From: a virus
Length of the DNA: 64,000 nt
Virus record (IMG/VR): IMGVR_UViG_3300007513_001761
Span: 49,249 to 113,248 of that record
Reading direction: 5' to 3' (one strand)
The notes beneath the pieces were generated by a model that had not been told where the DNA came from, made no database searches, and worked only from the letters and a program-made list of their open reading frames with translations. The position numbers and the translations under genes were made by a program. Shown here in pieces: positions 22,802 to 59,549 of the stretch. The stretch's first letter is position 1, and every line of letters starts with the position of its first letter.

Positions 22802-22806
22802 TTAAC

Positions 22807-23046
22807 TCACAAGGCTTCAATAGCATTGATCATTTCTTGTGGCTCAAAAACCGTTACGGTATCAATTCGAAACCAATTCGATGAAATATTTTTGCTTGGA
22901 GAATTGTATACGTTTGTTGGCTTTCCGCCTCTCCATTCGATTTGTAACCACTTCCAAGAATTCTCTTCTTTTTCTGCGATCACATTTCCAAATTGAATTT
23001 GTGTGGCATCATGAATGTGGTACACTGGCTTTCCTACTAATGACAT
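22807..23046 (-). CDS. Hypothetical small beta-rich protein
   Basis: GGAGG RBS. Confidence 0.6.
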   Translation of the reverse strand: MSLVGKPVYHIHDATQIQFGNVIAEKEENSWKWLQIEWRGGKPTNVYNSPSKNISSNWFRIDTVTVFEPQEMINAIEAL

Positions 23047-23394: not shown

Positions 23395-23420
23395 TAACTT
23401 TCATAAACTAACACAAACTC

Positions 23421-23449
23421 ATTATAACCAGAGGTCAAAAGCTTGTCAA
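23421..23449 (-). promoter_or_regulatory. Consensus sigma70 promoter
   Basis: TTGACA-N17-TATAAT; second TTGAC 11 nt downstream of the first. Confidence 0.8.
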
Positions 23450-23467
23450 GGACTTTTTTAAAAAAAA

Positions 23468-43912: not shown

Positions 43913-44011
43913 AACGTTGCCTTTATTAAGTTGCCTGCGAATGTTACAATCTCTACTCTGTACTCCCAAAGTACGATTGTAATCGCGGCTGTGATTAGTC
44001 TGTCTACCATT

Positions 44012-44969
44012 TTATTCTCCCTTTTGTACTCTCATATGTTTTAGTAATGACTTGTCGAACAGTCGAGGTTGACTGTCACCAACTAACAATACTTTGTGAT
44101 TCTCTATTACAACTCCATCGGTGCGGTTGATCCGATTGATGCCCAGATAGATACCTGTGCGTCGGTTAATGTCTCGGCAATGGCCATTGATGTAATCAAG
44201 TTTGAATAGTTCACCGGGTTTCATTAATCACCTCTAAATCTCTATCCAAAACGCGGCGAGGGGCGCGGTTGCCGATGAAGTGAACCTCAAGCAAAGTGTG
44301 CGCACCCTGGATGTGCGTCTGATCAAACTTACGCAAGATAAGGCCAACAGAACCAGCAGGTAAAAGGATTGAACTGCGCGTTATTCTCACTAAATCACCG
44401 GGCTGCATTGATAACCTCCAACCACTTAATAGGTTCCCATGATATCTCTTGATCTTGAATCCAATAAACTTTAACGCGCGGTCGTGTACTCGGATCAACA
44501 CGCAGCGCACCATTAGCGGTAGTCTGTAAAACAACACCGAGAGGCACGATCTTTTCATCACAAGGAAACTTTACCAGATCACCGACTTTCATTTTTTACC
44601 ACCTCGATGTCGTCAACGTTTGCAATCTGAACGCAACCGTTACCCCACGCAACGAGCCAGTGGTGTACGCCCTCAAGCAGATATAGCCCCATGTCCGCGT
44701 CTGCTGGGCGAACAAGCACACCAAGTGTACCACCATAAAGGGTCCACAGCGGATCGGTCTCAATCTCTCTAACCAGATCACCGACTTTCATTTAGAACCT
44801 CCACATCGCACAGAGCAGCCGAACACCAGCGCCCATCGGAAAGCTGCACATCGATGATTGTGTTTGACTCTTCTTCTGCGTCAATCACCATTGCAATGCC
44901 GATCACATACTGACCGCCATGGCGTGCGTTGGCGCGCCGATAGACGCGAACCAGATCACCGACTTTCAT
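44012..44969 (-). repeat. Cassette run 1: five chained GDLV mini-genes (44012-44224, 44211-44408, 44395-44592, 44579-44791, 44778-44969)
   Basis: Each begins M(K/Q)(V/P)G(D/E)L; successive genes overlap by exactly 14 nt. Confidence 0.88.
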
Positions 44970-45270
44970 TTTTTACCCCCTCGATGTGACGGCAACGACG
45001 CCGAAACTGATAGCCGGGACACGAGCAACGCCATGCGCCGCCGAACTCTTCCACCCGGTACGTCGCACCCTTGGAGCCTGTCACGGTCCACCGCTGCATC
45101 TGCGTGGCCGTCTCGCTCGGAGCGTTCCACGTCATGTACTTGGGAAGGTCTGCGCGAGTTGTGCCATCGGGCACAGGGATCCACGTCCCACCGCTGATCG
45201 CGTACAACTGCCCGTCCAGCATGCGGGACAGGATCGGGTTCCATGGAACGGTGACGGGTTTATCGGTCAT
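44956..45270 (-). CDS. SWIM zinc-finger protein using the same 14-nt junction
   Basis: V.GSKG..Y.V...WRCSCPGYQFRRRCRH; ends KNESR. Confidence 0.8.
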   Translation of the reverse strand: MTDKPVTVPWNPILSRMLDGQLYAISGGTWIPVPDGTTRADLPKYMTWNAPSETATQMQRWTVTGSKGATYRVEEFGGAWRCSCPGYQFRRRCRHIEGVKNESR

Positions 45271-45496
45271 TGATAGCCTCAAAATAATGTACGTTAAAGG
45301 TTTCTTTTCGGCTACCTGCCAAGAAGGTGGCCATCGGGTTGCCAGACAAACAGGTAGAAAGGCTCACCAGTACGCCGACCGTGCCGTGCAAGGCTGTGAA
45401 GGAGCCGCTCCCAGACCGGGATCCGCTGCTGATGTCTTTGAAGCGAACGAGATCGCCCACTTTCAGTCCGGTATCGTTTTCAAAATATGGGTTCAT
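45260..45496 (-). CDS. GDLV mini-protein
   Basis: MNPYFENDTGLKVGDLV...FEAINDR. Confidence 0.7.
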   Translation of the reverse strand: MNPYFENDTGLKVGDLVRFKDISSGSRSGSGSFTALHGTVGVLVSLSTCLSGNPMATFLAGSRKETFNVHYFEAINDR

Positions 45497-45702
45497 GCTT
45501 GGGCAACCTCGGAGATTTCGGCAGCAAAGAGCAACGCATTCACGCGCTGCATGTTTGTTTGCACTGCATCGTTGGGCGGTGTGGCCAAGTCGGCATAGAT
45601 GGCAAGCTGGAGCACCAGCACGTTGCACGCAGCAGCTTGCTGCTCCATGGGCGTGAGTGCCTTTGGGGCGTTGCTGGCGGAAAGGGTCAGGTCGCTGAAC
45701 AT
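45493..45702 (-). CDS. Hypothetical helical protein
   Basis: GAGG RBS; first gene after promoter copy 1. Confidence 0.55.
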   Translation of the reverse strand: MFSDLTLSASNAPKALTPMEQQAAACNVLVLQLAIYADLATPPNDAVQTNMQRVNALLFAAEISEVAQA

Positions 45703-45745
45703 GTAAATCCTCGGGGGGTGCGGGCAAATCTCTAACTTATGATCT

Positions 45746-45798
45746 ATTATCTCATATGCGAGCGAGAAAAGCAAGCCGATCCTGTCAAGAGAATGTCA
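45746..45798 (-). promoter_or_regulatory. Composite promoter copy 1
   Basis: TGACA-N6-TGACA-N8-TTGCTT-N17-GATAAT. Confidence 0.8.
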
Positions 45799-46020
45799 AG
45801 TCACAGCCTCCAACCACATCGGGTGAAAACACAGGATCTTCGCGCCAAACTGGACATGGTACAGATCCCTGTTTTTATGCCGTCTCTCTGATCTGACGAC
45901 TTCCACAACCAGACCGGTCCTGCTCTCTGGGAGCATCGGATCGTGGGTGCCGTCAATCACCCGAACCAGATCGCCAACGGCGAAAGGTTTATTCGTCTTC
46001 GTCGGTGTAGTAGCCATCAA
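45796..46020 (-). CDS. GDLV mini-protein
   Basis: FAVGDLV...GLVV...LEAV; stop is the TGA of the promoter box. Confidence 0.75.
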   Translation of the reverse strand: MMATTPTKTNKPFAVGDLVRVIDGTHDPMLPESRTGLVVEVVRSERRHKNRDLYHVQFGAKILCFHPMWLEAVT

Positions 46021-46198
46021 GGTTTGTTTGGGAAGAGGACAAGGGCATTCGATAAACCATCTCGTCCTGAATGAAATAGGCGTGCTGCTCCATATCGGGC
46101 AAATAAGCTAGGATATGGTCAAGTAGTTCTTTGAGTTTCTCAATCTCTTCTTCGTTGCGCATGCGCCGGTAGTCGTCAAGGTTTATTAGCTCGCCCAT
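45989..46198 (-). CDS. Hypothetical protein
   Basis: Start MGELINLDDYR with GAGG RBS. Confidence 0.6.
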   Translation of the reverse strand: MGELINLDDYRRMRNEEEIEKLKELLDHILAYLPDMEQHAYFIQDEMVYRMPLSSSQTNLDGYYTDEDE

Positions 46199-46503
46199 CA
46201 GAAAGGCACCTCTAAATAGGGGTCTTGCGTGAAGGGTGTCGCCTCGAAGATAATCGGCAACATGACGAGAGTAACCCCGGAACGCATGGCCAAGCCGACG
46301 TGACAACTTGTGGTCTGAGACTTGAAGGCGTTGCCGCCTGCCATGTACTCGGCCACAATGGTGCCGCCCATGCTTGTACGATGTCCGATCTTGAGATGGT
46401 AGGAATAAAGGTTTGTTCCGTCTGTGCTCATGGTGCAACGTCCATTGCGTGCGCGCTCTCCGCGCTTCCATGCTTCAATAACTCCTTGATTGGTGGTTCT
46501 CAT
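46198..46503 (-). CDS. Hypothetical phage protein
   Basis: AGGAG RBS; LYSY...IG, SQTTSCH. Confidence 0.7.
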   Translation of the reverse strand: MRTTNQGVIEAWKRGERARNGRCTMSTDGTNLYSYHLKIGHRTSMGGTIVAEYMAGGNAFKSQTTSCHVGLAMRSGVTLVMLPIIFEATPFTQDPYLEVPF

Positions 46504-46515
46504 GGTTGTAACTCC

Positions 46516-47799
46516 TTAATCGACCGCAATGACGCGCTCGTTGGTTTCAAAGTAGGGACGATCCGCATATGCCTTCGTCGTCATCCACATACGCTGGCAT
46601 GCGCTGGGAATGGGCTTAGGAGCACACATATCGGTGAGGATGATGTGACCGTCAAAGTTGTTTTCGTTGACGTACTTGGTGGGTGCATCAAAACACGTCC
46701 CACCGCAAAGCACTCGTTCCCATGCGCGGGTCTGTCCACGCTTCCAAGTATAAATCTTGTCCTCTGCAACGGCAGAATCAAAGGGGATCACCGTGAACTC
46801 TGCGATCTCGGCCAACTCGTTCAACTCGTTGAAAAACGCCGCCAGCATGCCGTCATCCACCGATCCGCTCTGATCAATGCTGATCGCGATCTTGGCGTGG
46901 CGACGGACGCGCTTGCCAGGATGGATCTTGGGGAAGCGACGGTTGATCCGTCGTGGCGTCGAGCGCCGATCAGCGCGTTGGGAAGTTTTAACGAAGTACC
47001 GCAGCACCTTGCGCCAGTCCACGCGGGTCTGGATGCGCTCAAGAATGTCTTTGCGCATGGATGCAGACACGGATCCCCAGCTACGAGCCTTTTCGGCTTC
47101 TTCTGCTGCCTTCTTGATCGCGTCCTTCAATCGCTCCGTGGCGATGTCTTTGGCAGTGCCTTCGGCATCACCGAACTGCTCGTGTGAATCAAAGCTATCG
47201 GCACCACCGAACGGATCGCCGTTGCCAGGCTGACCGGGCTGGCCACCTTCACCGGGCTGACCTTCGCCCGGCTGGCCTTCGCCGCCGCCGTCGCCTTCAC
47301 CTTCGCCCATCTTCTTGAGGGCTTCCAGATACCACTCGTAGGTCTGGTTGGCTGGCAGGTCGGCAAATGGACCTTCGCCCGGAATGCAACCCTTCATAGG
47401 CTCGCCGTTAATGTCCGGTCCTGGGTCGGTCTCACCTGGCAGCTTGCCGATCATTTCGGGCAAGCCGTTGATGGCCAAGTCCATCGCGATATTGTCGATG
47501 CGCTTCAAGCCGTCGATGGGCTTGCGACCGGTCACATGCTCAAAGATGATGTGATAGAACTCGTGCATGAGAACGCCCAGCTTGTGCTCGTCCTTCAAAG
47601 CGCCCATAAAAGAAGGGTTATAAAGAAGCTCAAACTGCTGCCGTTCTGGGTTCACGCGCACGCCCGCAGTCGGGATCGCAGTTGATGCGGTCTTGTCAAT
47701 CCGACGCGACAACGCAGCAAAAAACGGCTCTTGCATCAGCAAGCGCGCGGTGTGCATGTTCAAGTTGAAGGGGGTTTTAGTTGCGTTGTCGTCGTTCAT
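46516..47799 (-). CDS. HExxH metallopeptidase-VWA protein (DUF2201-like)
   Basis: MHEFYH, NIAMDLAIN, Gly/Glu linker, IDQSGS, GGT.F, LTD. Confidence 0.9.
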   Translation of the reverse strand: MNDDNATKTPFNLNMHTARLLMQEPFFAALSRRIDKTASTAIPTAGVRVNPERQQFELLYNPSFMGALKDEHKLGVLMHEFYHIIFEHVTGRKPIDGLKRIDNIAMDLAINGLPEMIGKLPGETDPGPDINGEPMKGCIPGEGPFADLPANQTYEWYLEALKKMGEGEGDGGGEGQPGEGQPGEGGQPGQPGNGDPFGGADSFDSHEQFGDAEGTAKDIATERLKDAIKKAAEEAEKARSWGSVSASMRKDILERIQTRVDWRKVLRYFVKTSQRADRRSTPRRINRRFPKIHPGKRVRRHAKIAISIDQSGSVDDGMLAAFFNELNELAEIAEFTVIPFDSAVAEDKIYTWKRGQTRAWERVLCGGTCFDAPTKYVNENNFDGHIILTDMCAPKPIPSACQRMWMTTKAYADRPYFETNERVIAVD

Positions 47800-47819
47800 T
47801 TCCTTACCTCACTATACTA

Positions 47820-47872
47820 AGTATAGCAGTTGAACGGTTTGAAGTCAATAGTTTCGTGTCAAGAGAATGTCA
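47820..47872 (-). promoter_or_regulatory. Composite promoter copy 2
   Basis: TGACA-N6-TGACA-N8-TTGACT-N17-TATACT. Confidence 0.88.
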
Positions 47873-48154
47873 AGACTCATTTTTCTCGTCATCGTCTGCC
47901 ATGATCTCAGCGACCTCGGCCACCGTTAGCTGACGATCAGCCTTCCGGCGCTTGTTGTACTCGCGCAACAGGCGGTTGTACCGCTTGGAGTTGGGCTTAC
48001 AAACATGGATATGAGGCACTCCGATCCGGCTCATGCGCCGGAACATCTCGCGCGTTGCCTGCTCCGTGTCAGGGCGCGTTAGTGGCACCTCGGTTGCAAC
48101 AGGTTTGCCATCGACGATGGCCACAGACGTTTGACTCACATACCACTTGCTCAA
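47870..48154 (-). CDS. Hypothetical protein
   Basis: AGGAG RBS, TTG start; stop lies inside promoter box. Confidence 0.65.
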   Translation of the reverse strand: MSKWYVSQTSVAIVDGKPVATEVPLTRPDTEQATREMFRRMSRIGVPHIHVCKPNSKRYNRLLREYNKRRKADRQLTVAEVAEIMADDDEKNES

Positions 48155-48183
48155 GATAAGCTCCTTTCTCTAGCTGATGATCT

Positions 48184-48236
48184 ATTATCTCATTTTTTGA
48201 CCTAAAAGTCAACCTCCACATGTCAGGAGAATGTCA
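48184..48236 (-). promoter_or_regulatory. Composite promoter copy 3
   Basis: TGACA-N6-TGACA-N8-TTGACT-N17-GATAAT. Confidence 0.85.
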
Positions 48237-48241
48237 AAGGT

Positions 48242-48454
48242 CTAAGGTTTGTTTGGGGTGTAATACTTGGCGCGCACTTCGATGTCCTTCATCCAAAAGT
48301 ATCGACCCTCTTGAAAGAGCCGGTAGATCCTGCGTGGTTGCTTGATGTTGCCGTACTCGTGTAGGTAGTCATCATTGACCTCGGTCACAATCGCCGGTTG
48401 ACCGGTCTTGTACTGGATGAGGAGCGCGCCAAGCTCAAAGGTTTGTTTGCTCAT
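48242..48454 (-). CDS. Divergent GDLV-type mini-protein (FELGALL)
   Basis: Motif pattern. Confidence 0.6.
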   Translation of the reverse strand: MSKQTFELGALLIQYKTGQPAIVTEVNDDYLHEYGNIKQPRRIYRLFQEGRYFWMKDIEVRAKYYTPNKP

Positions 48455-48678
48455 AGCTTCTCGCCTGGCACACGCATGAGGACATCGCCGTGGAAGATCA
48501 TGGACTTCCTACTTTTCAACCAGCGCACGGTGTAGCGGGCACGATAGGGTTTCTCAGTTATAACCTCGGTTATCATCCCTGGCCCGCTGGTTTCCGTGAA
48601 CGCCTGGTCAGGCGACCCTCTTGCAAGGCGGTTGGTCAGATAGACCAACTCGCCCAAAGAGAAGGTTGGATCAGACAT
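48451..48678 (-). CDS. GDLV-type mini-protein (FSLGELV)
   Basis: GMITEV...YTVRW. Confidence 0.65.
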   Translation of the reverse strand: MSDPTFSLGELVYLTNRLARGSPDQAFTETSGPGMITEVITEKPYRARYTVRWLKSRKSMIFHGDVLMRVPGEKL

Positions 48679-48679
48679 T

Positions 48680-49759
48680 TTAGCCTCCCAAGATGCTGAC
48701 CAAGTGATCGCTGACGCGCTTGCCGCCAGTAGTTTCTGCCTTGTGCAGTGCGACCACGTTGTTCACGTTGTCGGCATCACCCAGGACGGTCCACATCTTC
48801 ATAGCCACCTCGGAGGGCAGCGTGACGAAGTAGTTGGCCAGGTTCTGCACCTGCGTCTCGGTCAGATCCGCTGCAAAGGTCTCCGCAGCTTCAAACTTTT
48901 GGATCATGGCAGCGTGATCGTTGATGCCCCACTCGGAGGTCTTAGCGATATCGCCACTATCAAGGATGTCCTCAATGGTCACCTGCCAAGCGTAGTTAAC
49001 AACGAAGTCCTTGAGTGCTACCGCTGCCTCGAAACCGAGAAACGCAGTGGCCAGGTTGAAAAGCAGGTCTTGATCGCCGCCCTCTTCAAACACGCCAGCA
49101 GGTGCGGCGGTGTTGTTGAACCGTGCCCAAGACCGGCGAGAAGGATAAACCTTGTTGGGCTCAAAGTCGCCCTTGTGCTCAAGGTGCAACCGGTTGTGGT
49201 TGATGAAGTCCCAGACAACGGTGTTCACCTTGCCGTCCTTCGCCCAGTTCAGCCAGTCCTCGTCAGAGGGATCCACATCGAAGACGGTCCAGCGGTCGAG
49301 TTCTGCCGGGTCCATCTCACCGACTTGGTACTGGGCACCATGCTCGCCACCGTTCACGGCTGCGATGATGATGGTCTCCGGGTGAAGGTTCCACCCGTTG
49401 ATCTTGCGGGAATCGGTCAACTCGAAGAGACCCTGACGGACCTCCATCGTTGCGCGGTCTACCTCATCGAGAAACAGCACCACCGGCTGCTCGCATGCGG
49501 TCACGAGCCAGTCGGGCGCGTTCCACGTCGTGGCCTTGCGACCGTTGATCGAAGTGTCTGCCGTGTCGGGCAGACCGAGAAGATCGCCCTCGGTCATCTG
49601 GGACGCCCGGCGCTCCACCACAGGCAGAGTCATCTGATCAGCGATCATGTAGACCACCTCGGACTTGCCGACGCCATGGCGACCGCGAATAAGCACGGGC
49701 AGCTTGGCGCTGATGATGTGAGGGGCGACGGAAAGGAAGGTTGCGAAATCGACGGACAT
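48680..49759 (-). CDS. MoxR/dynein-related AAA+ ATPase
   Basis: GRHGVGKS Walker A; LFLDEVDRA Walker B; AAVN; DPAELDRW; PSRRSW. Confidence 0.92.
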   Translation of the reverse strand: MSVDFATFLSVAPHIISAKLPVLIRGRHGVGKSEVVYMIADQMTLPVVERRASQMTEGDLLGLPDTADTSINGRKATTWNAPDWLVTACEQPVVLFLDEVDRATMEVRQGLFELTDSRKINGWNLHPETIIIAAVNGGEHGAQYQVGEMDPAELDRWTVFDVDPSDEDWLNWAKDGKVNTVVWDFINHNRLHLEHKGDFEPNKVYPSRRSWARFNNTAAPAGVFEEGGDQDLLFNLATAFLGFEAAVALKDFVVNYAWQVTIEDILDSGDIAKTSEWGINDHAAMIQKFEAAETFAADLTETQVQNLANYFVTLPSEVAMKMWTVLGDADNVNNVVALHKAETTGGKRVSDHLVSILGG

Positions 49760-49800
49760 TTAGGCTCCAGAGATTAGTTGTTTCTCACTCTTACTTTATA

Positions 49801-49853
49801 AGTATACAGGAAAAAAGGTTTCAGGTCAAGGTTTATTTGTCAAGAGAATGTCA
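49801..49853 (-). promoter_or_regulatory. Composite promoter copy 4
   Basis: TGACA-N6-TGACA-N8-TTGACC-N17-TATACT. Confidence 0.88.
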
Positions 49854-50106
49854 AAGGAAAGCCGCCGTCTGCCCATTGCAAACCCGACTCTGTGATGGTC
49901 CACTCATCGAGCCAACGCCCATCCATGGATCGCTCACGCTCGATCAAACCTTCGAGCACAAGCATGTCCAGGGCAAGACGTGGCCACGAGGTTTCGGGCG
50001 CTTGCAGGCTATACATGCCATCGCGACTGGTCACGACACGACGCAGCATGTAGATATCCCGCCTCGAAAGCAGCTTATCGTTGAACATATAAAGTCTCTC
50101 TCTCAT
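49840..50106 (-). CDS. Putative winged-helix protein
   Basis: L..L...GLI......W.ITE.G pattern. Confidence 0.55.
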   Translation of the reverse strand: MRERLYMFNDKLLSRRDIYMLRRVVTSRDGMYSLQAPETSWPRLALDMLVLEGLIERERSMDGRWLDEWTITESGLQWADGGFPLTFS

Positions 50107-50936
50107 GCTTTCTTTGCCTTAAAGGCGGCAACGATGGTGTCTGATTCCCCGGAAAGCCAGTTAGCAGGGGGATTAATCTTGTCCGCGCTGACGGGGGAAA
50201 CCAGGGCACGGCGCTGGTAGTCGTTTTCTGAATCGTCCAGCTTCCAAGCTCCCAGGGTGCTGCCCATGCGAGGGGTAACATCGCCATGCACATCGACTCG
50301 AAGGATGTCCTGGTCCTCATTACGAAGATAGGGAAGCTCCATAGACTCACGGCGCTGGGTGTCCAGCTTATCCATCCGATGCAGAACGAGCACCGGGGCG
50401 CGCGAGTTGTAAATAGACATTTTATCCCACATTACATCGGTCACCATGCACACCACCTCGCGGCGATCCCAGCGCTTCTCGCCTGGGTTCTCGGGATCTG
50501 GGAAGTAGTCAGAATACCTTTGTGAAACGAGAGATCCCACCCCGATACCAGCGGCGCGCATGCCCTCAAGCACTACGCTGCGCATGGCGGCGGTCTTTTC
50601 GATGGCCCTCTGAATGTCTGCTTTTAGGGCAGAGCAGGTGCGGCGCGTGTGCCCCAAACCTTCTTCGGCCTCATCGCCATACTTGTACTTGCAGTAGGAG
50701 CAGCGGCGAGTGGGTCCGCGCTTTTCCAGCTTGTCGCCGGTCAGCGGGTTAACACCAGTCCGCACGGCGATCTTATCGGCCATCATTTTAGCCATGCGCT
50801 TGTCATAATCACAATCGCTAGCGTTGAAGCGATCAAAACGTTTTTGCAAACGCTTGAGTGCTTCAGGGCAAGACCTTCTGTTGTGTCCGCGCTGGTAGCA
50901 CGCGCCGCATCGAACTGTTCCGTAGTGATTACCCAT
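50103..50936 (-). CDS. Protein with two CCHC-type zinc knuckles
   Basis: CGAC...GHNRRSC and CSYC...GHTRRTC. Confidence 0.75.
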   Translation of the reverse strand: MGNHYGTVRCGACYQRGHNRRSCPEALKRLQKRFDRFNASDCDYDKRMAKMMADKIAVRTGVNPLTGDKLEKRGPTRRCSYCKYKYGDEAEEGLGHTRRTCSALKADIQRAIEKTAAMRSVVLEGMRAAGIGVGSLVSQRYSDYFPDPENPGEKRWDRREVVCMVTDVMWDKMSIYNSRAPVLVLHRMDKLDTQRRESMELPYLRNEDQDILRVDVHGDVTPRMGSTLGAWKLDDSENDYQRRALVSPVSADKINPPANWLSGESDTIVAAFKAKKA

Positions 50937-50981
50937 GTTTTCTATCCTCTCGGGGGGGTGTCTTTCTCGACTTGATGATCT

Positions 50982-51034
50982 ATTATCTCATATGCGGCGC
51001 GCAAAGTCAACGCCCAAATGCAAAGTGAATGTCA
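50982..51034 (-). promoter_or_regulatory. Composite promoter copy 5
   Basis: TGACA-N6-TTGCA-N8-TTGACT-N17-GATAAT. Confidence 0.8.
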
Positions 51035-51262
51035 AGAGACGATTTCCAAGGCCGAAGCTGCCATACGAGCAGGTTTCTTCTCGCCCGCCCAGAGCACCAG
51101 CGGATCACCCTTGTCGGGGTTCACATCTCCAAAGTGATCGAAGGCGACGAGAACGCCGACCTTGCGAGCATGCACGGACAGACGAAGTCGGGCGCGCTCG
51201 GCAGCGCGATCCGCCTTGAAGCGGACCAGGCAGCCGGGGGAAATGTCGTCTTTCGTCATCAT
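51032..51262 (-). CDS. GDLV-type mini-protein (SPGCLV), probably leaderless
   Basis: ATG 6 nt after the -10; ends LEIVS with stop in promoter box. Confidence 0.7.
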   Translation of the reverse strand: MMTKDDISPGCLVRFKADRAAERARLRLSVHARKVGVLVAFDHFGDVNPDKGDPLVLWAGEKKPARMAASALEIVS

Positions 51263-51268
51263 GTATAC

Positions 51269-51321
51269 ATTATCCCATGAAACAGGGAAGAAGTCAAGGT
51301 TGGTTTGTCAGGAGAATGCAA
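51269..51321 (-). promoter_or_regulatory. Composite promoter copy 6
   Basis: TTGCA-N6-TGACA-N8-TTGACT-N17-GATAAT. Confidence 0.8.
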
Positions 51322-51323
51322 AA

Positions 51324-51506
51324 GGAGGCGATAGAGAGTGTGCGCTGTCCTTACCGCGCACGTCGCTTAGTCCCGCTTCAACTGCCACTTCGCGGCTAGC
51401 CTGCCTAAGAAGTCCGCGTTATGTGACTTCTAACCCTTGTTTTCAGCAGATGGGTTCGTTTGGGACGGTGAACCCGTTACTTTAGTTATGGCTCTCTATC
51501 GCCTCC
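51324..51506 (-). ncRNA. Candidate 183-nt multi-stem structured RNA
   Basis: Perfect 15-bp terminal inverted repeat GGAGGCGATAGAGAG/CTCTCTATCGCCTCC followed by TTTT; several internal stems; possible pseudoknot. Confidence 0.7.
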
Positions 51507-51522
51507 GGCACTTACTCCTCCA

Positions 51523-52338
51523 TTATCGACTTTCTCCCTTCTTTTTCTTGGGTACTCGATGGGTTTTAAGATCGCGCTCTTCTGCGATGATCGTTTGGGT
51601 GCCTCCCACCGGCAGAAGTTTGTAAACCTTGTTGCCGCGCGCTGCGGCGACGGGAATCTCGGCGTTGGCTTGAATGACCACGGCCATTTCGGAAGGCATC
51701 TTGCGCCGGAGCGCCCAGGAAGCACTACCGCGCAGCGATACCATGCTTCCAACCTCGTATTTCGGGGCATCGAAGTAGCCCGCTAGTACCTTGGTTGCGT
51801 ACTTGTTGTTGGTCAAGCGGTCATAATCGCCCTTTGATGGTACACTTTCGGGGCTCAGACGCGCGCGCGACACGATCCGCTGAAAGTAGCCGTTCTTCCG
51901 GTAGTATTCCACCATCACATCAAACTTTTGACGCATCTCTGGGGTAAAGTCCTTCTCCCATGAGGCGCGCGTGGCCACTTGTCCGGCGGTCCAGTTGCTT
52001 TCAATGTTGGCCAAAACCTCTTGCTGACGAGGAGACAACGCGCTGCCTGCCATCAGTTGCTTCAGAAGGCTCTCGGTGAAGCCGAGCCCCCACTGTGCAT
52101 CGTCTCCACTCATGCGAGAACGCAACCCCTTGATGCGCGCGATCATTTCTTCATCGCGTGCAGGAGGGCTGTCATAGCGCGCTTCCAGTTGCAGCAGGCA
52201 ACGCTTCCGTCCGGCGGTCAGCGTGCGGCGGTGTTTGTAAGAACCATAGAGAGATTCCGCAAACGTCCGATCTCGCTCGCTCAAGTAATCTTTGGCGAGA
52301 AGGGCGGCGAAGCGGTCAGCGTAAGTGATGCGAGGCAT
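51523..52338 (-). CDS. Hypothetical protein with repeated F.ESL...L(S/T) helical units and C-terminal SH3-like domain
   Basis: AGGAG RBS; YEVGSMV...YK.L. Confidence 0.75.
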   Translation of the reverse strand: MPRITYADRFAALLAKDYLSERDRTFAESLYGSYKHRRTLTAGRKRCLLQLEARYDSPPARDEEMIARIKGLRSRMSGDDAQWGLGFTESLLKQLMAGSALSPRQQEVLANIESNWTAGQVATRASWEKDFTPEMRQKFDVMVEYYRKNGYFQRIVSRARLSPESVPSKGDYDRLTNNKYATKVLAGYFDAPKYEVGSMVSLRGSASWALRRKMPSEMAVVIQANAEIPVAAARGNKVYKLLPVGGTQTIIAEERDLKTHRVPKKKKGESR

Positions 52339-52363
52339 GGGTTAAACTCCTTTCTACTCTCTA

Positions 52364-52416
52364 AGTATCTCATAGAACGAGGTAGAAGTCAAGGTTTCTT
52401 TGTCAGGGAAATGTCA
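52364..52416 (-). promoter_or_regulatory. Composite promoter copy 7
   Basis: TGACA-N6-TGACA-N8-TTGACT-N17-GATACT. Confidence 0.82.
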
Positions 52417-52424
52417 ACAAAGGT

Positions 52425-52820
52425 TTATTCGTCTTCTTCCACGATCACAGGGGTTGCTGTGCCCTGCATCATGCGCTGGAGGGCTGCACGTCGCTGTGCT
52501 GCCATCGAGCCCAGCCGCACATCAGAATCACCAAAAGCCTGTTGAGACCTGGCTTTCTTTATTTCGCGCGCTTGGAGTCCAATCTGAATAAACTGCTCTG
52601 CTGCTGCGGGCGGTGCTTCGTTGAACCTATCGTCCCACCCATCATCGCGGTGCAACATTTCGCGCAAGTCATCCTCCAATGCTGTAAGTTCGTTGATGCG
52701 ATCAGCAAGCTCCGGCGACGGCAAACAACCTGCTGACGTTTTGCCCACTTCAATGATGTGTGCGCCGACTGCCGTCATCAGCAGGGAAAGTTCGCGATCT
52801 GTTAGTTCGAGGGTTTTCAT
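52425..52820 (-). CDS. Hypothetical protein
   Basis: GGAG RBS. Confidence 0.65.
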   Translation of the reverse strand: MKTLELTDRELSLLMTAVGAHIIEVGKTSAGCLPSPELADRINELTALEDDLREMLHRDDGWDDRFNEAPPAAAEQFIQIGLQAREIKKARSQQAFGDSDVRLGSMAAQRRAALQRMMQGTATPVIVEEDE

Positions 52821-52845
52821 GTGTCATATCTCCAAGTGATGCTCT

Positions 52846-52898
52846 ATTATCTCATTAAACAGGGGGAAAGTCAAGGTTTGTTTGTGAGGGAAATGTCA
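52846..52898 (-). promoter_or_regulatory. Composite promoter copy 8
   Basis: TGACA-N6-TCACA-N8-TTGACT-N17-GATAAT. Confidence 0.8.
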
Positions 52899-53180
52899 AG
52901 TAATCTTCTGGAACATGTCGAACCGGTCATCAACAAAGTTTTTGACTTCGCGCAGCCCATCAAAACGTGGAGGTTCGCCGGACCCGCGTGCTGTTTCTGC
53001 CATTTTTGCGCATTCATGCCCGTAAGCACGGAGCAACTTGATCAACTCGATCTTGCTGAAAATCGCCTTTCTTCCGTAAGAAGAAAGACCTGCGTGTTTG
53101 CGCGCAAGAATGTTTGCGATCTGAAGTGCGTCTTTCAAACCTTCTCGATCTTCCGTGTCTAAAACTAGTGTAACTTTCAT
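52896..53180 (-). CDS. Protein with ribosomal L7/L12 C-terminal-like motif
   Basis: KIELIKLLR.....GLREVKNFVD. Confidence 0.55.
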   Translation of the reverse strand: MKVTLVLDTEDREGLKDALQIANILARKHAGLSSYGRKAIFSKIELIKLLRAYGHECAKMAETARGSGEPPRFDGLREVKNFVDDRFDMFQKIT

Positions 53181-54059
53181 TTAACTGCCTCAATGCTTCG
53201 GTGGTGGAATGGCCAAACCTTTCCCTGAACGAGCACATCGTAAAAGGTGTTGTTGACCCCGTGGCGCGGTTCACTCACAATGATCCCGATGGGCTTACCA
53301 TCAATATACTTGCAACGTACTAAATCACCGACTTTCACTGATCACCTCTGCTTCGTCGGCTCGCACTTCCACGGCTCCAAGTTTGTCCGCAACTTTCAGC
53401 ACTCGCACCAAGCCCTCCATGCGCTCGCCTATGATGATGCCTCGATACTGTGTGTATTCCCACGGCTCAAAAGCTGAGCCGGTACCGGTTGAGTACCATT
53501 TCCAACGGATAAGATCACCGATTTCCATTTAGAACCTCCACTTCACCCAAGTGACAAGAATAATACTCGCCGTTCCATAAAACCCTTGCACGAGCATAGA
53601 CATGGGGATCGTAATCATCAAACGACATGAAGATCCCGATAACCTTCTTACCCTCAACTGTGAACCTCACCAGATCACCCTTTTCCATTAACCACCTCCC
53701 ATTCGCTCGCCATGCCGCGATACTTGGTGCTACCGACTAAAACCGTGATCACTTCATAAGGGGTACCAAGCACGCCTATGGTGATCACAACACCAGGCTT
53801 ATCAGTGTACGTGAAGCGCTTGTTGTTTTTAGCAGCCCAAAACATCATAGGTTTCATTTTCACCAAATCACCGACGTTCATTGATCACCTCAATATCTCG
53901 GCGGTAGTAAGCCGATGGCTGCTCGTGGGCATAGCCGTGAAAAGCAATAATCGGATCGTTGTCGCTGTCGAAACTGACCACAATGCCAGTTCCTAAGCGG
54001 GACGGCTTTTCCACATCTTCACGGGCATCAGCGAAAACTACCAGATCACCGACGTTCAT
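53177..54059 (-). repeat. Cassette run 2: five chained GDLV mini-genes (53177-53338, 53325-53528, 53515-53688, 53675-53881, 53868-54059)
   Basis: Two members (53 and 57 aa) translated by hand, below the ORF-track cutoff; 14-nt overlaps. Confidence 0.88.
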
Positions 54060-54204
54060 CTGCTTGCCCCTTGTGCTTGCCGTGCCGCACGTAACCGCGC
54101 TTGCTGTGAAATCCTGCGCCTTTGCGTCCAGTGAGACCTTTGGCGTGTGCGATCACCCAGTTGCGGGCTTTCGGCGTCTTGTTCTTGCTCTTTCTCTTAC
54201 TCAT
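54046..54204 (-). CDS. 52-aa basic protein with ArfA-like C-terminal motif, leaderless
   Basis: Manual translation MSKRKSKNKTPKARNWVIAHAKGLTGRKGAGFHSKRGYVRHGKHKGQADERR. Confidence 0.6.
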   Translation of the reverse strand: MSKRKSKNKTPKARNWVIAHAKGLTGRKGAGFHSKRGYVRHGKHKGQADERR

Positions 54205-54210
54205 ACATGT

Positions 54211-54263
54211 ATTATAGAGGATTTCGCCCTCAGAGTCAAGGGTTTAATGTCAGGAGAATGTCA
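54211..54263 (-). promoter_or_regulatory. Composite promoter copy 9
   Basis: TGACA-N6-TGACA-N8-TTGACT-N17-TATAAT. Confidence 0.9.
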
Positions 54264-54446
54264 GGTCTTTGCCATCCTCTCAAGCCGACTTTCCCGAAAA
54301 GGTTTAATCAGGTTCCGCTTCGTGAGGTATACATAGTAGCATAAATGCCCGACTATCGGCTCGGGATGTTTGCGCATCACGATACCCGTATGCAGAATGT
54401 GGCCAGTCCCCACAATACGCACCAGATCGCCTTTCTTAAAGCTCAT
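54261..54446 (-). CDS. GDLV mini-protein (MSFKKGDLV)
   Basis: GAGG RBS; stop lies in promoter box. Confidence 0.75.
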   Translation of the reverse strand: MSFKKGDLVRIVGTGHILHTGIVMRKHPEPIVGHLCYYVYLTKRNLIKPFRESRLERMAKT

Positions 54447-54454
54447 TTCAATCC

Positions 54455-54772
54455 TCAACCCTGCAACTGGGTTTGTACCACGGCAATCCGATACTCGGCG
54501 TGGCTTTGGTCCCAGAGCACATCGCACCATGAGCGAAAGATGGAATACAGATCGCCGCTCGATTTTGCCTTAAGCTCTTCGGTGGAACCGACAAAGCAAC
54601 GTTCGCCGTTGTCATCCACATATGTGGACAACGAGCCCTGTTGTGGCAGCGCGCCTATCAGATACTCATAGATGTCTTCAATAGCGCAGATTAAAGCCCC
54701 CTTACGGGTCATGTGAACGCTCGTAAAAGCCTCACCATCATAGGTGCCCACTGTGGAATATACTTTTATCAT
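54455..54772 (-). CDS. Hypothetical protein
   Basis: Start MIKVYS with ATGA overlap. Confidence 0.6.
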   Translation of the reverse strand: MIKVYSTVGTYDGEAFTSVHMTRKGALICAIEDIYEYLIGALPQQGSLSTYVDDNGERCFVGSTEELKAKSSGDLYSIFRSWCDVLWDQSHAEYRIAVVQTQLQG

Positions 54773-55113
54773 GCGCTTCTCTTCTCTTTGCTCTCGGCCA
54801 ACATCTTCTCTACCCATGCACCACCAAACTCGGCTGCGTACTTGTCGCGGAGAACCAGCAACTTCTCGCCGTCCTTCACTTCGTTGCGCAGCTTGTAGCC
54901 AGGAATCAAAAACTCGGTCCCTGGAGGCATGCCGATAAACACAGAGCACACAGCATAGGGCACAGACTTCCACCGGGTTTTTTGCTCTCCGGTCTTCTTG
55001 TCCTTCCAACTGCTGCGGAAGCGCCGAAAGCGCATGTCAATCACGCGCGCTTGAAGCAAGCCGCCGTCTGGTTTTTGAATCATTACGATGTCGTCTTTGG
55101 TCAGATAAGCCAT
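54769..55113 (-). CDS. Hypothetical beta-rich protein
   Basis: AAGGA RBS. Confidence 0.7.
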   Translation of the reverse strand: MAYLTKDDIVMIQKPDGGLLQARVIDMRFRRFRSSWKDKKTGEQKTRWKSVPYAVCSVFIGMPPGTEFLIPGYKLRNEVKDGEKLLVLRDKYAAEFGGAWVEKMLAESKEKRSA

Positions 55114-55143
55114 TGAATGTGTCCTTTCTTGAGGTTATGCCTT

Positions 55144-55196
55144 ATTATGCCACAGGGAGATTGAGAAGTCAACCCTCAAATGTCAAGAGGATGTCA
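55144..55196 (-). promoter_or_regulatory. Composite promoter copy 10
   Basis: TGACA-N6-TGACA-N8-TTGACT-N17-CATAAT. Confidence 0.85.
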
Positions 55197-55739
55197 GGAC
55201 TTCAAGGGTGTGCGTTGGAGTTTGAAAGGTGCCGTAAGATCCCCAGCAAACCTTGGCAATCCCCGCATTCATCTCTACAATGATTCCGATTCCCTTCCAG
55301 GTGCTGCGCTTGGCCAGTAGTCCATACTTCTTGCGGACCAGATCGCCAATGGCCAAAGGTTTATTCACAGTTTCAGAGTTTTTCATAGTAGTAGCTCGGA
55401 TCTTGAATGATTCCCTCAGAAAGAGAATGGATTTTGAGAATGGGATATTCGGACTCTCCCCACCCTAGTGCTTTTGATTCTGGAGTTTCAACGTGGATAA
55501 TATCCAAAATGACACAAACACCACCGGGCTTGCGATGTTGCCACACCAAATCACCCACTTTCATTTAGCACCTCTAAGTTCGCACCCAGACACGAGAAAC
55601 TATGGCCATCAAGAGCGCGCAAGTCGTAAATAAACCGCGTTTCACCAGCGGAATCTTTGACTGAATGGCGAACACGCACAATCAAAGCCAAGATCATGCC
55701 AGGGTGGGTTTTGACCACCACCAGATCACCGACTTTCAT
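55183..55739 (-). repeat. Cassette run 3: three chained GDLV mini-genes (55183-55386, 55373-55564, 55551-55739)
   Basis: 14-nt overlaps. Confidence 0.85.
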
Positions 55740-56114
55740 TTAGAAGTCCAGATTGATGGTGGTGTAGGGGTAGATATCCTGAAAGCCGTATCCGCGACTC
55801 TCAATGTCTGTACTATTTTCGCCCACTCGAACAAAGCGATAAAGCTCATCCAGTTGCATGCGTTGGCCATTAACTTCAATCTCAGTGCCCTCGTCGAGCT
55901 TTTCCATGAACGCCTCAATGGCTTCAATGACTGCATAGGAACTATACCATTTAATAGAGTTCCACCGAAACATGATCCCATCTTCGCGTTCTCTCTTTTC
56001 GTCGCAATCCTCATGGCACAAAGTGTGTGCGCCTGGACAACTTGTGAAAAGATGCATCAGCATTCCTTCGATTCGCTTGTCAACCACCAACACTACTTCT
56101 GAACGATAACCCAT
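55740..56114 (-). CDS. Hypothetical phage protein (MGYRSEV family)
   Basis: AGGAG RBS; W..IKWY, RFVRVGE...D. Confidence 0.75.
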   Translation of the reverse strand: MGYRSEVVLVVDKRIEGMLMHLFTSCPGAHTLCHEDCDEKREREDGIMFRWNSIKWYSSYAVIEAIEAFMEKLDEGTEIEVNGQRMQLDELYRFVRVGENSTDIESRGYGFQDIYPYTTINLDF

Positions 56115-56143
56115 GTGCTCTCCTTTTTTGAGCTTGTGATAAG

Positions 56144-56196
56144 AGTATAGCAGAAGACCAGAGCGCGGTCAAGGACCAAATGTCAGAGACATGTCA
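56144..56196 (-). promoter_or_regulatory. Composite promoter copy 11
   Basis: TGACA-N6-TGACA-N8-TTGACC-N17-TATACT. Confidence 0.88.
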
Positions 56197-56200
56197 AAGG

Positions 56201-56621
56201 TCATGCGCTGCTGATTAAATCCAGTTCTCCCAAATGAAACCAGACTGAGGGCACCCACTTGTGCTCGGAGTTAATGTGGTTAGTGTGAAAGTAAACACGA
56301 TAGGAGGTATCTATCAGCGGATGTTTTGACCGTTCTATTTCCACAATAATGCCCACCATGTGGTGCGCCGTTCGTCGTTTGGGTTTAACCAAGTCACCGA
56401 CTTTCACTTAGTACCTCAAATCGTTCCAACGCAAAGTGTGAGAGGGTAGTAGCATGGCCACCGTGGACCGGCAACGGCTCAAACCATCGCACTGCTAAAC
56501 GAGGCTTACCATCGACCGGAGCAACCGGCGTAAAGTGTGTAATGTAACCCACATGCCCGATGAAGTGATGATAACTCTCACCTTCGGACAACCCAACGTA
56601 TTTAATAATCGATCCAATCAT
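56201..56621 (-). repeat. Cassette run 4: 56201-56407 (GDLV) and 56394-56621 (MIGSII..., leaderless)
   Basis: 14-nt overlap; 56201-56407 is a paralog of 56685-56891. Confidence 0.8.
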
Positions 56622-56627
56622 GTTATG

Positions 56628-56680
56628 ATTATAGTCTCTGGCGATCAAAAAGTCAAGCGCCACATGTCAGAGAAATGTCA
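56628..56680 (-). promoter_or_regulatory. Composite promoter copy 12
   Basis: TGACA-N6-TGACA-N8-TTGACT-N17-TATAAT. Confidence 0.9.
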
Positions 56681-56684
56681 AACG

Positions 56685-58061
56685 TCAGGCGCTGCTGATC
56701 AAGTCCAGTTCTCCCAAATGAAACCACACGGACCTCACCCACTTGTGCTCGGAGTTGATGTGGTTCGTGTGGAAATAGACGAGATAGGATGTGTCTATCA
56801 TCGGATGTGGCGGTCGGCTGATCTCCACGATAATGCCCAGCATGTGGTGTGCTGTAAAACGTTTGGGTTTGACCAAATCACCGATTTTCACTGATCACCT
56901 CTATGTTTTCGGGACACTCAGCCGAAAGACCCTCAACATCGGTCCACATAGGAGTATCCCAGTGTACCAGCACTTGTTTGTGATCCCACCCGGTATTTAT
57001 ACACATCACAATACCGAATCGTCTTGATCCAGACAGTAGGTTAGCTTTCGTTGGGCGTACTAGATCACCCACTTTCATCGTACACCTCAAAAGGTTTATA
57101 TGTAAGTCGGTTAAACCATTTGGCTGGGTAGGCGGTAAGACCATGACCCCACAAAATGTGATATTCGCTCGGGTGTCCCTCGTGCATGACGATTTTTACC
57201 AACAAACCCAGCCAAGATTGGGTGTAGTCTAGCCCTGGCCTTGCTTGATGCGCCTTAGAAAACATCACCAGATCACCCACTTTCATTTACAACCTCCATT
57301 TGTTCAAGGGGTGTGGAGTAGATTTGGCCATCCCACAACACATAGGCGCGAGTAATGACCGGATAGCCTTCGGCGTCTCTGCCGATAGCAACGATGTCAT
57401 CCCGAATAAAAACCCCAAGAACGGGTTTCTCATGCGGACCAAACATTACTTTCACCAAATCACCGGGCTTCACTGATCACCTCTGCTTCGTCATTAGCCA
57501 GTTCCCACTCGCCACAATCAAACTGAACGATCCACATCTGACAGCCGTGTCGGTATTCTTCTTGCTTCTTCACCACTCCGAGGCGGCTGCTTTCATGGAA
57601 GCAAAAGAAACATTCACACTCTCCTTGGCTGTACCCAGGACAATCCGCAACCTTTACTAAGTCACCCACTTTCATTTACAACCTCCAACATCGCGCGCAT
57701 GTGCCAGCTTTTGCCATGGCGTGGCCAGATCACGATGGCATCATTCCACACATCACAATCGAGATCGCGGTCCAGCGAATAGCCTCTTTGTTCAAAAGCA
57801 ATCACAATGCCATATCCCATCTCATCAATGGTTTTGCGGAGAGCGTCACGGTCTAGTAGCTCGTCATTCTTTAGTCTAACGATGTCACCCACTTTCATTG
57901 ATCACCTCATAGTTCCAGCCTTGTAGCCAGCCCGCCTCTCCGATAACCTTTATCCACCCCCCATCTGTGGCACGCACCAAGTAGGCTTTATCATAGCGAG
58001 TTGTGATAGACTTGGCTCTCACTAAGTCACCCACTTTAATCCGGGGCTTCACCTGCCTCAT
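56685..58061 (-). repeat. Cassette run 5: seven chained GDLV mini-genes (56685-56891, 56878-57078, 57065-57286, 57273-57473, 57460-57675, 57662-57898, 57885-58061)
   Basis: Six 14-nt overlaps; last member (58 aa) translated by hand. Confidence 0.9.
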
Positions 58062-58088
58062 CAATGCCTCTTTCTTTAGGTTGTGTCA

Positions 58089-58141
58089 ACTATACCACAG
58101 CCCCCTTAAACGGTCAAGCCTGTTTTGTCAGAGGCTTGTCA
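58089..58141 (-). promoter_or_regulatory. Composite promoter copy 13
   Basis: TGACA-N6-TGACA-N8-TTGACC-N17-TATAGT. Confidence 0.82.
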
Positions 58142-58267
58142 AGTTCAACGCGGCGAAGCTGCTCGCGAATAGTTTTTACGTTCTGATCTGTGAGGGTGGT
58201 CTGCACAGGCTCACAAAGATACCCGCGCAGCCACCACACAAACTGTGCGGCCGAAAGGTTTGTTTGG

Positions 58268-58567
58268 TCAAGACTCAAACTTGATGACTCCCGGCGGTAG
58301 TTCGCCATCCACCATCCCACCATGCTTGGCGATGACGGTGGCCACAGTGAACACGGGAACGTATGCGTACACGGTTTCGGTGGGCTTGGCATGATCCTCC
58401 ACGTATTCCATCAGCATCTCTTCTTTTTCGGAAGGAAAGCCCACTTCCACCTCGGTGTAACGTGTGGCGTGGTCCATTCGCGGGCTACAGTATGCTCCAT
58501 CGTGCGCTTGGACGCTCATTGTAAAGCCGTCCGCACACACTACCATTTTATTGCGTTTAAGGTTCAT
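58268..58567 (-). CDS. Hypothetical phage protein (CADGFTMSVQA family)
   Basis: GGAGG RBS before MNLKRN. Confidence 0.7.
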   Translation of the reverse strand: MNLKRNKMVVCADGFTMSVQAHDGAYCSPRMDHATRYTEVEVGFPSEKEEMLMEYVEDHAKPTETVYAYVPVFTVATVIAKHGGMVDGELPPGVIKFES

Positions 58568-58571
58568 TGTT

Positions 58572-58778
58572 TTATCCTCCTCTCTTGTCAAACAATGTGT
58601 CAATGCTTCCAGTGAAGCTGTTGGGCGCCATGTCGCGGAGATTTTCTCGCGTTCTCTTGGCAGCAATGCGACGTGCGGAATGATCCCCGCATGTCAGACA
58701 TGTATCATAGCCCAGTTCTTTGCGGCGGTAGTTGTACTCCTCTCCGCATTTAATGCATTCAGCGATTTTCGCTAACAT
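58572..58778 (-). CDS. C4 zinc-finger small protein (TraR/DksA-like spacing)
   Basis: CIKCGEE...R..LG...CLTC. Confidence 0.6.
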   Translation of the reverse strand: MLAKIAECIKCGEEYNYRRKELGYDTCLTCGDHSARRIAAKRTRENLRDMAPNSFTGSIDTLFDKRGG

Positions 58779-59019
58779 AATATTCTCCTTGGTTGTTGTA
58801 AAAGTGATATTGCCTTCTCAAATTGAAAAGGTTTGTTTCGCACTCTCGGGGTACTGCCCATCGTGCGCCGGGTTTCTTGGTGGTCCAGTGAATCTCCCAA
58901 AAGGCTGTGCCGTATTCTATCTTTCTCTCCGTCAAGATACCCTGACATCCTGGCTCCGCGTGGTGTGCGCTGGTGACTACGAGGTCACCTGGACTAAACT
59001 TATAGCGATTGTAGCTCAT
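58759..59019 (-). CDS. GDLV mini-protein (FSPGDLV)
   Basis: Motif pattern. Confidence 0.7.
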   Translation of the reverse strand: MSYNRYKFSPGDLVVTSAHHAEPGCQGILTERKIEYGTAFWEIHWTTKKPGARWAVPRECETNLFNLRRQYHFYNNQGEYYVSENR

Positions 59020-59261
59020 TTATTTCCTTTGCTGATTAGCTCAAGGTCAGTAGGGAGCCAGTCAAAGACGGAGCCGTCAGTGTGACGAACCTCCACCACT
59101 TCCGTGTGTTGAAAACTTGTACCGGCTGCTTTCATTTCTCCCTCCGAAACATTTATAACGACACCCGGATTGTAGATGGCAACGGGGAATCCTCCGTTTT
59201 CGGTGTGCCAGTCTGCGATGTTTGAATGCATTTGCACCAAGTCTCCAACTTCAAACTTCAT
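59016..59261 (-). CDS. GDLV mini-protein (FEVGDLV)
   Basis: GVVI...DLELI. Confidence 0.75.
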   Translation of the reverse strand: MKFEVGDLVQMHSNIADWHTENGGFPVAIYNPGVVINVSEGEMKAAGTSFQHTEVVEVRHTDGSVFDWLPTDLELISKGNK

Positions 59262-59285
59262 TTGTGCCTCCTAAAAAGGAAAAAT

Positions 59286-59534
59286 TTAGCGCGAAGTTTC
59301 GGCGGGTTCTTCGCCAACAATGCACACCACCTCTGCGTCTGTCTCAATCCACACGCGCGCGCCGCATGACAAAGGTTTATCTGGTGAGTATATAACTCGA
59401 CATGGCCCGTCAATGCGGGCTTCATGGCAATAGTCATTTGATTTATAAGTTTTAACCGTCAATACGGGCTCTCGCTCTCCTTTCTTTTGATTGGAGCGAA
59501 TGATGTGTTGATTAACGTGGATTCTTCTCTTCAT
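59286..59534 (-). CDS. Conserved phage hypothetical protein
   Basis: IHVNQH, YSPDKPLSCGARVWIET. Confidence 0.75.
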   Translation of the reverse strand: MKRRIHVNQHIIRSNQKKGEREPVLTVKTYKSNDYCHEARIDGPCRVIYSPDKPLSCGARVWIETDAEVVCIVGEEPAETSR

Positions 59535-59549
59535 CTTTCCTCTGCGGTC

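Follow-up and report, generated by a model that had tools for sequence, protein, structure and literature searches.

Species 1 and 2 of phage T4 (rnaC and rnaD) are stable RNAs, of unknown function, that are encoded within the tRNA gene cluster. RNAs of the size considered below that combine a pseudoknot, a GNRA loop and near-invariant junctions are usually ribozymes, riboswitches or the cores of ribonucleoproteins, and new classes of such RNAs are rare. In the Melnitz-like marine myophages a glutamine riboswitch is associated with the phage tmRNA (PMC9004378). A catalogue of 8,495 candidate structured RNAs has been drawn from IMG/VR, with entries of 29-151 nt (PMC10690425). The RNA described here is a new family within this known kind of orphan phage structured RNAs, and its structure is well supported.

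The window (the whole 64,000-nt stretch analysed, the final 64 kb of a 113-kb IMG/VR record whose completeness is estimated at 61%) carries at positions 51506-51324, on the minus strand, what is almost certainly the gene for a compact, pseudoknotted noncoding RNA of about 183 nt. Its family is uncatalogued and, as searched, is confined to uncultured marine myophages of 185-205 kb. A sequence-only reading of the window had pointed to a perfect 15-bp closing helix, a set of stems enclosed by it, a possible pseudoknot between a GTCCC loop and a distal GGGAC, and a trailing TTTT, all within a noncoding gap, and had suggested a new phage ncRNA, perhaps a decoy, a ribozyme or an sRNA set free by RNase III. 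The helix is present on the minus strand (51506-51492 with 51338-51324), the inner stems P2, P3a/P3b, P4 and P5 all lie where they had been placed and show compensatory changes in homologues, and the gap is real, extending from the stop codon of a 271-aa gene (51525-51523) to the next ATG (51262). The loop complementarity was found at 51466-51462 and 51374-51370 and is upheld by compensatory changes. The TTTT does follow P1 at 51323-51320, but it is no feature of the family, in which at least five T residues among the eight bases after P1 occur in 10 of 53 members. The features, read along the minus strand, are as follows.

52364-52392, minus strand: σ70-like promoter of the cassette made up of the 271-aa gene and the RNA, TTGACT-17-GATACT with TG, by consensus match only
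51523-52338, minus strand: co-oriented upstream gene of 271 aa, of no named family, with 77 homologues; its stop lies 17 nt before P1
51324-51506, minus strand: the whole structured RNA, from the P1 5' strand to the P1 3' strand, 183 nt; supported by fold (z -4.74), covariance model scores (142-233 bits) and covariation
51492-51506, minus strand: P1 5' strand, 15 nt; 15 of 15 pairs change on both sides in homologues
51476-51491, minus strand: J1/2, an A/U-rich linker with a conserved UA, from the conservation profile
51452-51475, minus strand: P2 hairpin with the 12-nt loop L2, 51475-51470 pairing with 51457-51452; 100% of cells paired, the stem nearly invariant
51462-51466, minus strand: pseudoknot 5' strand, GUCCC in L2, pairing with 51370-51374 in 100% of cells in 34 distinct sequences
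51400-51450, minus strand: P3 (P3a plus P3b), a variable long hairpin; 10 of 10 pairs covary and the length varies
51450-51445 with 51405-51400, minus strand: P3a, enclosing P3b
51431-51425 with 51414-51408, minus strand: P3b, inside P3a
51384-51396, minus strand: P4, a short hairpin, 51396-51392 pairing with 51388-51384; 3 of 3 core pairs covary, with GNRA-type loops in most homologues
51370-51383, minus strand: J4/PK, with a conserved A.U..AA, together with the pseudoknot 3' strand GGGAC (51370-51374), from pairing and the conservation profile
51340-51361, minus strand: P5 hairpin, 51361-51356 pairing with 51345-51340; inner CGC/GCG conserved, 10-nt loop with a near-invariant purine-rich AGGA
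51324-51338, minus strand: P1 3' strand, 15 nt, from fold and covariation
51320-51323, minus strand: TTTT 3' of P1, particular to the window copy and not conserved in the family
51269-51297, minus strand: σ70-like promoter of the next cassette, TTGACT-17-GATAAT with an upstream TG, 27 nt after P1

RNAfold applied to the locus recovers P1 and the inner hairpins. The minimum free energy of -74.2 kcal/mol compares with -54.6 ± 4.1 kcal/mol for 200 dinucleotide shuffles (z = -4.74), and none of the 200 shuffles was as stable. The minus strand is taken as the RNA strand because frequent G-U pairs and GNRA loops are readable in that sense alone; in the alignment the P4 caps are GAAA, GAGA, GUGA or GCAA in most members. 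The G-U pairs and the P4 caps argue for selection on RNA rather than on DNA or protein. The 15-bp stem followed by UUUU was also considered as an intrinsic terminator and rejected, the "loop" being 153 nt, the element not being called by a terminator scan, and the U-tract being limited to the 10 of 53 members noted above.

Homologues were gathered by several routes. With the 271-aa protein as query, a related viral contig was recovered in which the same RNA follows the same gene; between the window and its nearest viral homologue the RNAs are 86% identical and the adjacent proteins 57% identical. A covariance model (R1) built from the window RNA and that first viral homologue matched five further lineages among 69 viral loci carrying the 271-aa gene. 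A fishing pattern that combined the flanks of the P2 loop with the P5 loop matched 8 viral and 44 metagenome loci, all of them marine or seawater where a source is named, and had 0 matches in 185,579 prokaryote species (one genome each). The alignment of model R2 comprises 51 hits, of which 34 are distinct sequences. Covariance models and pattern scan together bring the homologues to about 50 marine viral and metagenome loci, in which the RNA is 131-208 nt long and differs in length by gain or loss of whole hairpins. Models R2 and R3 define the family by the P1 closing helix, a P2 loop that pairs with the P4/P5 junction, and a P5 hairpin with an AGGA-type loop. The window copy has each of these, scoring 142-233 bits with all helices and the pseudoknot present.

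Twenty public DNA runs, all of marine or seawater metagenomes, contain the stretch or part of it. Among GenBank phages, neither blastn of the locus nor megablast of the surrounding 8 kb returned anything similar. Model R3 had no hit in Microcystis phage Mel-JY01 or Flavobacterium phage immuto, the closest relatives in culture (baseplate protein identities of 31% and 30%, respectively), a result of low weight. In a comparison of exact 16-mers with viral contigs, one matched the known homologue alone, and the other matched 23 loci, all by chance except that homologue. A search for relatives of the locus through the downstream 277-aa protein found none.

Covariation across these homologues is strong and extends to the pseudoknot. 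In the close set (34 distinct sequences), 96.8% of cells pair, against 71.3% when shuffled and 40-49% (about 43%) when slid, and 34 of the 42 pairs change on both sides, among them every pair of P1 (15/15), P3 (10/10) and P4 (3/3). P2 is nearly invariant, yet compensations of G-C to A-U and of G-C to C-G are seen there. In a diverse set of 29 sequences, obtained by model search of whole genomes, 95.0% of cells pair against 63.4% when shuffled, with changes on both sides in 38 of 42 pairs. Such counts of nested pairs are inflated to the extent that model-fitted alignments lean to their model. The pseudoknot is unaffected by that lean; since it is absent from the model, the alignment was unable to favour it. 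It is nevertheless paired in 34 of 34 members of the close set (100% of cells), with 3-4 of its 5 pairs covarying, and all five pairs form in 24 of 28 members of the diverse set. About 15 combinations of the two 5-mers occur, including GUCCC/GGGAC, GCCGC/GCGGC, GCCUU/AAGGC and GUCAU/AUGAC. In the close set, part of the invariance of the L2 flanks and the P5 loop is built in, because the fishing pattern fixed those bases; in the distant set found by covariance model, the AGGA motif is still at least 75-90% conserved. A column-pair scan for additional tertiary pairs yielded purine/pyrimidine column artefacts and register neighbours alone.

Comparison with catalogued RNA families gave no match. 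Rfam 15 (4227 models), applied to the window at the gathering threshold, found six tRNAs and a tmRNA elsewhere and nothing on the RNA. With E values up to 10 the locus gave a 13.9-bit chance match to CRISPR-DR24 alone, and in 11 diverse homologue loci, with E up to 5, there was again nothing on the RNA. ARAGORN placed no tRNA, tmRNA or tRNA-like domain at 51324-51506, and covariance models of self-cleaving ribozymes (hammerhead, twister, twister-sister, pistol, hatchet and HDV-like) matched neither the window nor the homologues. The earlier impression that the RNA falls outside the tRNA, ribozyme and riboswitch consensus sequences is thus borne out by cmscan of the window and the 11 homologues. 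That it is a new phage ncRNA agrees with the lack of an Rfam match, the strong covariation and its not being a dispersed repeat. The family is new relative to Rfam 15; the catalogue of PMC10690425 was compared by entry length alone (at most 151 nt).

Several other identities were tried and rejected. A T-loop or tRNA-like reading of GGGUUCA is contradicted by covariation of P2, whose GUUCA pairs with UGAAC (with a compensatory A-U in 3 sequences) and is thus not a T-loop. An RNase P-like reading of P4 and a ZTP-like reading of ACUGGCG were considered and dropped, and a glnA-like reading of the GUUCACC hairpin is without covariance model support. A phi29-type pRNA gave no match to the RF00044 model, and the host genome is that of a 185-205 kb myophage with baseplate genes. 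Nor is the RNA a MITE or other dispersed repeat: it occurs once in the 113-kb record and at most twice per complete related genome, in syntenic places.

The RNA is present in 14 of 22 large records searched whole and in 8 of the 10 estimated to be at least 90% complete (phage genomes of 185-205 kb); five records hold two copies. Its contexts vary, since it may follow the 271-aa gene, lie between unrelated small ORFs or form part of a tmRNA module, and the genes downstream of it are unrelated from locus to locus. In other complete genomes it is found 4-12 kb or more from the 271-aa gene, or beside the tmRNA. Two records that are estimated to be complete and encode a relative of the 271-aa protein (G014 and G020, the genomes behind L074 and L091) contain no RNA detectable with R3, through either loss or divergence beyond the model. 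Weaker and shorter copies keep the core of P1, P2, pseudoknot and P5 with its AGGA-type loop, and have usually lost P3 and P4. Across both types, the bases that the conservation profile marks as the invariant core are single-stranded or loop bases.

Seven of the short copies lie 0-900 nt upstream of a phage tmRNA and on the same strand (L156, L160, L161, L164, L166, L167 and L168). The order of the module is conserved, with genes of about 280 aa and then about 120 aa preceding the RNA, and one of about 78 aa between the RNA and the tmRNA. In L156:1501-2054 the end of the RNA is the exact 5' start of the tmRNA. The corresponding region of a further member is:

L161:1501-2188, same strand as the tmRNA: tmRNA-adjacent paralogue locus

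A weak match (E about 2e-4) at L169:1417-1649, minus strand, has no P2 and abuts a tRNA-Leu in a six-tRNA cluster; it may be a degenerate copy or a false positive. The window has a tmRNA module of its own at 22237-23400 (minus strand), with the tmRNA at 22237-22601 (tag ANNNTHFEAVAVAA) and genes of the 78-aa and 120-aa types. The slot taken elsewhere by the RNA is here filled by a 77-aa ORF (22812-23045). Model R3, run with filters off on 21500-24500 around this tmRNA, returned noise only, so that the window genome is without a detectable tmRNA-adjacent copy.

The differing contexts, the unrelated downstream genes and, in the window, the promoter that intervenes before the next gene point to an independent RNA gene rather than the leader of any one gene. 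Together with the paralogue tied to tmRNA and tRNA, the P1 helix, the compact fold and the unpaired core, the varied contexts lead us to propose a gene for a stable, trans-acting RNA. The reading we favour, which is held tentatively and as something short of probable, is that the RNA acts early and in trans, binding a protein or the ribosome through its near-invariant unpaired bases. Early in infection, transcription from the promoter at 52392-52364 would pass through the 271-aa gene and yield the RNA as the tail of the transcript. The RNA would then persist as a stable species, presumably because P1 shelters both of its ends; size, ends and stability are all inferred. The bases that it would offer are the purine-rich AGGA of the P5 loop, the flanks of the P2 loop and the junction that precedes the pseudoknot, and in doing so it might serve as a scaffold, a sponge or a decoy. 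The copy that abuts tmRNA would fit a gene of the stable-RNA kind, released by the same processing that matures tmRNA and tRNA. The AGGA loop resembles Shine-Dalgarno and CsrA-binding motifs, a resemblance only, from which binding to a protein or to the anti-Shine-Dalgarno sequence is an idea. The complement of the P5 loop was found in the window at the locus itself alone, with no target site. Similar conservation of junctions is also typical of ribozymes and riboswitches.

Since the RNA has no promoter immediately in front of it in the window, it might just as well act in cis, as a 3' element of the 271-aa mRNA. More broadly, the RNA may be a processing or stability element that punctuates early transcripts, either a self-cleaving ribozyme of a new class or an entry or barrier site for a nuclease; its role would be to determine where the 271-aa mRNA has its 3' end or, in other genomes, to assist the release of tmRNA or tRNA. 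Its placement suits such a role: the RNA is invariably found on the coding strand, at a boundary between transcription or processing units, and copies abut tmRNA and, in the one weak match, tRNA. The U-tract is not conserved, so another way of making ends would be useful, and the RNA has conserved junction bases, a pseudoknot and a GNRA loop, much as a catalytic core would. Yet no self-cleaving ribozyme of Rfam matches, a long P1 that pairs both ends is not needed for a simple processing signal, and RNase P alone is able to cut the 5' end of tmRNA. We consider this explanation unlikely, although it deserves to be kept in mind.

The cassette order in the window is promoter, 271-aa gene, RNA and next promoter, and in most close homologues the same composite promoter lies 20-60 nt after the RNA. 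In the window's clade the ORF that follows the RNA has this promoter ahead of it, so the RNA is not its leader. The composite promoter consists of two upstream TGACA-type boxes, TTGACT, 17 nt and TG-n-GATAAT, and is found at cassette boundaries across related phages. In the window it occurs at 51269-51297, 50982-51010 and 52364-52392, and it occurs after the RNA in L027, L104, L114, L128 and others. A block at 44001-60000 has a G+C content of 49-55%, against 38-45% in the remaining window, and coincides with the promoter-rich region of small genes. A MoxR-type AAA ATPase (PF07728; 46516-47799) and a DUF2201 metallopeptidase/VWA-like protein (48680-49759) are encoded near each other on the minus strand; pairs of the MoxR and DUF2201-VWA type are common in phages.

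A further proposal is that the RNA is a riboswitch-like element that senses a ligand and so adjusts how far whatever lies downstream, be it small early genes or tmRNA, is read through or translated. The highly conserved junctions and a pseudoknot near the 3' strand would be in keeping with a ligand sensor, and many members have an ORF that begins 5-50 nt beyond P1 without an intervening promoter. The window's P1 and UUUU could serve as a terminator, and Melnitz-like phages offer a precedent in the glutamine riboswitch next to their tmRNA (PMC9004378). What renders the proposal quite improbable is that the downstream genes are unrelated across loci and that a complete promoter precedes the next gene in the window's clade, while neither a U-tract nor the masking of a ribosome-binding site is conserved in the family. 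Nor does any Rfam riboswitch match, glnA and Downstream-peptide included.

Relatives of the 271-aa protein number 77 in databases and are almost all viral. No Pfam or PHROG family was assigned, tblastn against GenBank phages found none, a sequence profile search of the PDB found none, and Foldseek returned nothing below E 0.001. The AF2 model (pLDDT 88) comprises a helical domain at the N terminus, for which no clear match was seen, and an SH3/KOW/Tudor-like barrel at the C terminus, whose match is generic (Z about 7). Among pattern-fished loci that have upstream DNA, the gene stands 10-70 nt ahead of the RNA in 31 of 31, and in the window one promoter would serve both. The RNA might accordingly be pictured as the dedicated partner of this protein, which would bind the RNA from its own transcript in a ribonucleoprotein or for autoregulation; the predicted barrel is of a fold that often binds nucleic acid. 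We regard such a partnership as very improbable. On the protein tree, the genes that adjoin the RNA fall into one clade or two (2 changes, 1 not being excluded), so that the arrangement looks inherited rather than required. At most loci with the gene the RNA does not directly follow it, and elsewhere the two are kilobases apart or the RNA is beside tmRNA. G014 and G020 have the gene and no detectable RNA, and the barrel match, with Z under 8, is generic.

That there is no functional RNA here, and that the locus is a chance inverted repeat, a MITE, a DNA-level site or a protein-coding gene that was missed, is scarcely credible: mechanical ORFs do run over the stretch on the plus strand (51162-51485 and 51277-51399), but every helix has compensatory changes with G-U pairs, length varies by whole hairpins, the genome holds a single copy, and the position is syntenic across dozens of loci.

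Most complete genomes in this abundant but uncultured lineage of large marine phages have retained the family, and a paralogue is tied to tmRNA. Together these facts offer a way into the question of how such phages reprogramme RNA metabolism or translation in the host. The alignments A4 and A6 and the model R3 supply a tested secondary structure, with which experiments are possible without a cultured host. Were the RNA a mere stabiliser of transcript ends, the result would be an ordinary one. A bolder suggestion, to which we attach only a small likelihood, is that it is the first member of a new functional class: a self-cleaving ribozyme, a ligand sensor, or a partner of the tmRNA module in the takeover of host translation. 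In the last of these the Shine-Dalgarno-like AGGA loop might be shown to ribosomes or to a regulator of the CsrA type.

How, then, does the family stand beside the phage RNAs already described? Like T4 species 1 and 2, which are released by tRNA-type processing, its members are small phage RNAs, some of them found beside tRNA-type genes, with paralogues just ahead of tmRNA and one abutting it. The likeness is by description only and, unlike the T4 species, the window copy ends an early protein-coding cassette outside the tRNA/tmRNA cluster. ROOL (RF03087) and GOLLD (RF01998) are likewise phage-linked, structured and pseudoknotted, and are often near tRNA genes, but both are several times larger than the family RNA and neither model matches it. 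Y RNAs of the YrlA type, the partners of Ro60/Rsr, share paired ends and a long stem closing a module, and by analogy the RNA might scaffold a protein. Unlike them, it has no Rfam match and no tRNA-like module, and a scan of nine neighbouring ORFs gave 0 Ro60/TROVE matches.

The glutamine riboswitch (glnA, RF01739, and Downstream-peptide, RF01704; PMC9004378) is, as are the short copies, a pseudoknotted element by the tmRNA of marine myophages; it differs in that the family RNA is about three times longer and matches neither covariance model, and in that the window copy is not beside tmRNA. The phi29 pRNA (RF00044) resembles the family in its length of about 170-180 nt, a long helix closing the 5' and 3' ends, a multi-branched core and a covarying short loop pairing. 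The phi29 loop pairing is made between molecules, which form a ring on the portal of podophages of about 20 kb, whereas the family belongs to myophages of about 200 kb and, unlike pRNA, is represented in some genomes by two divergent copies. By analogy with pRNA, the RNA described here could form a multimer through its own covarying loop pairing.
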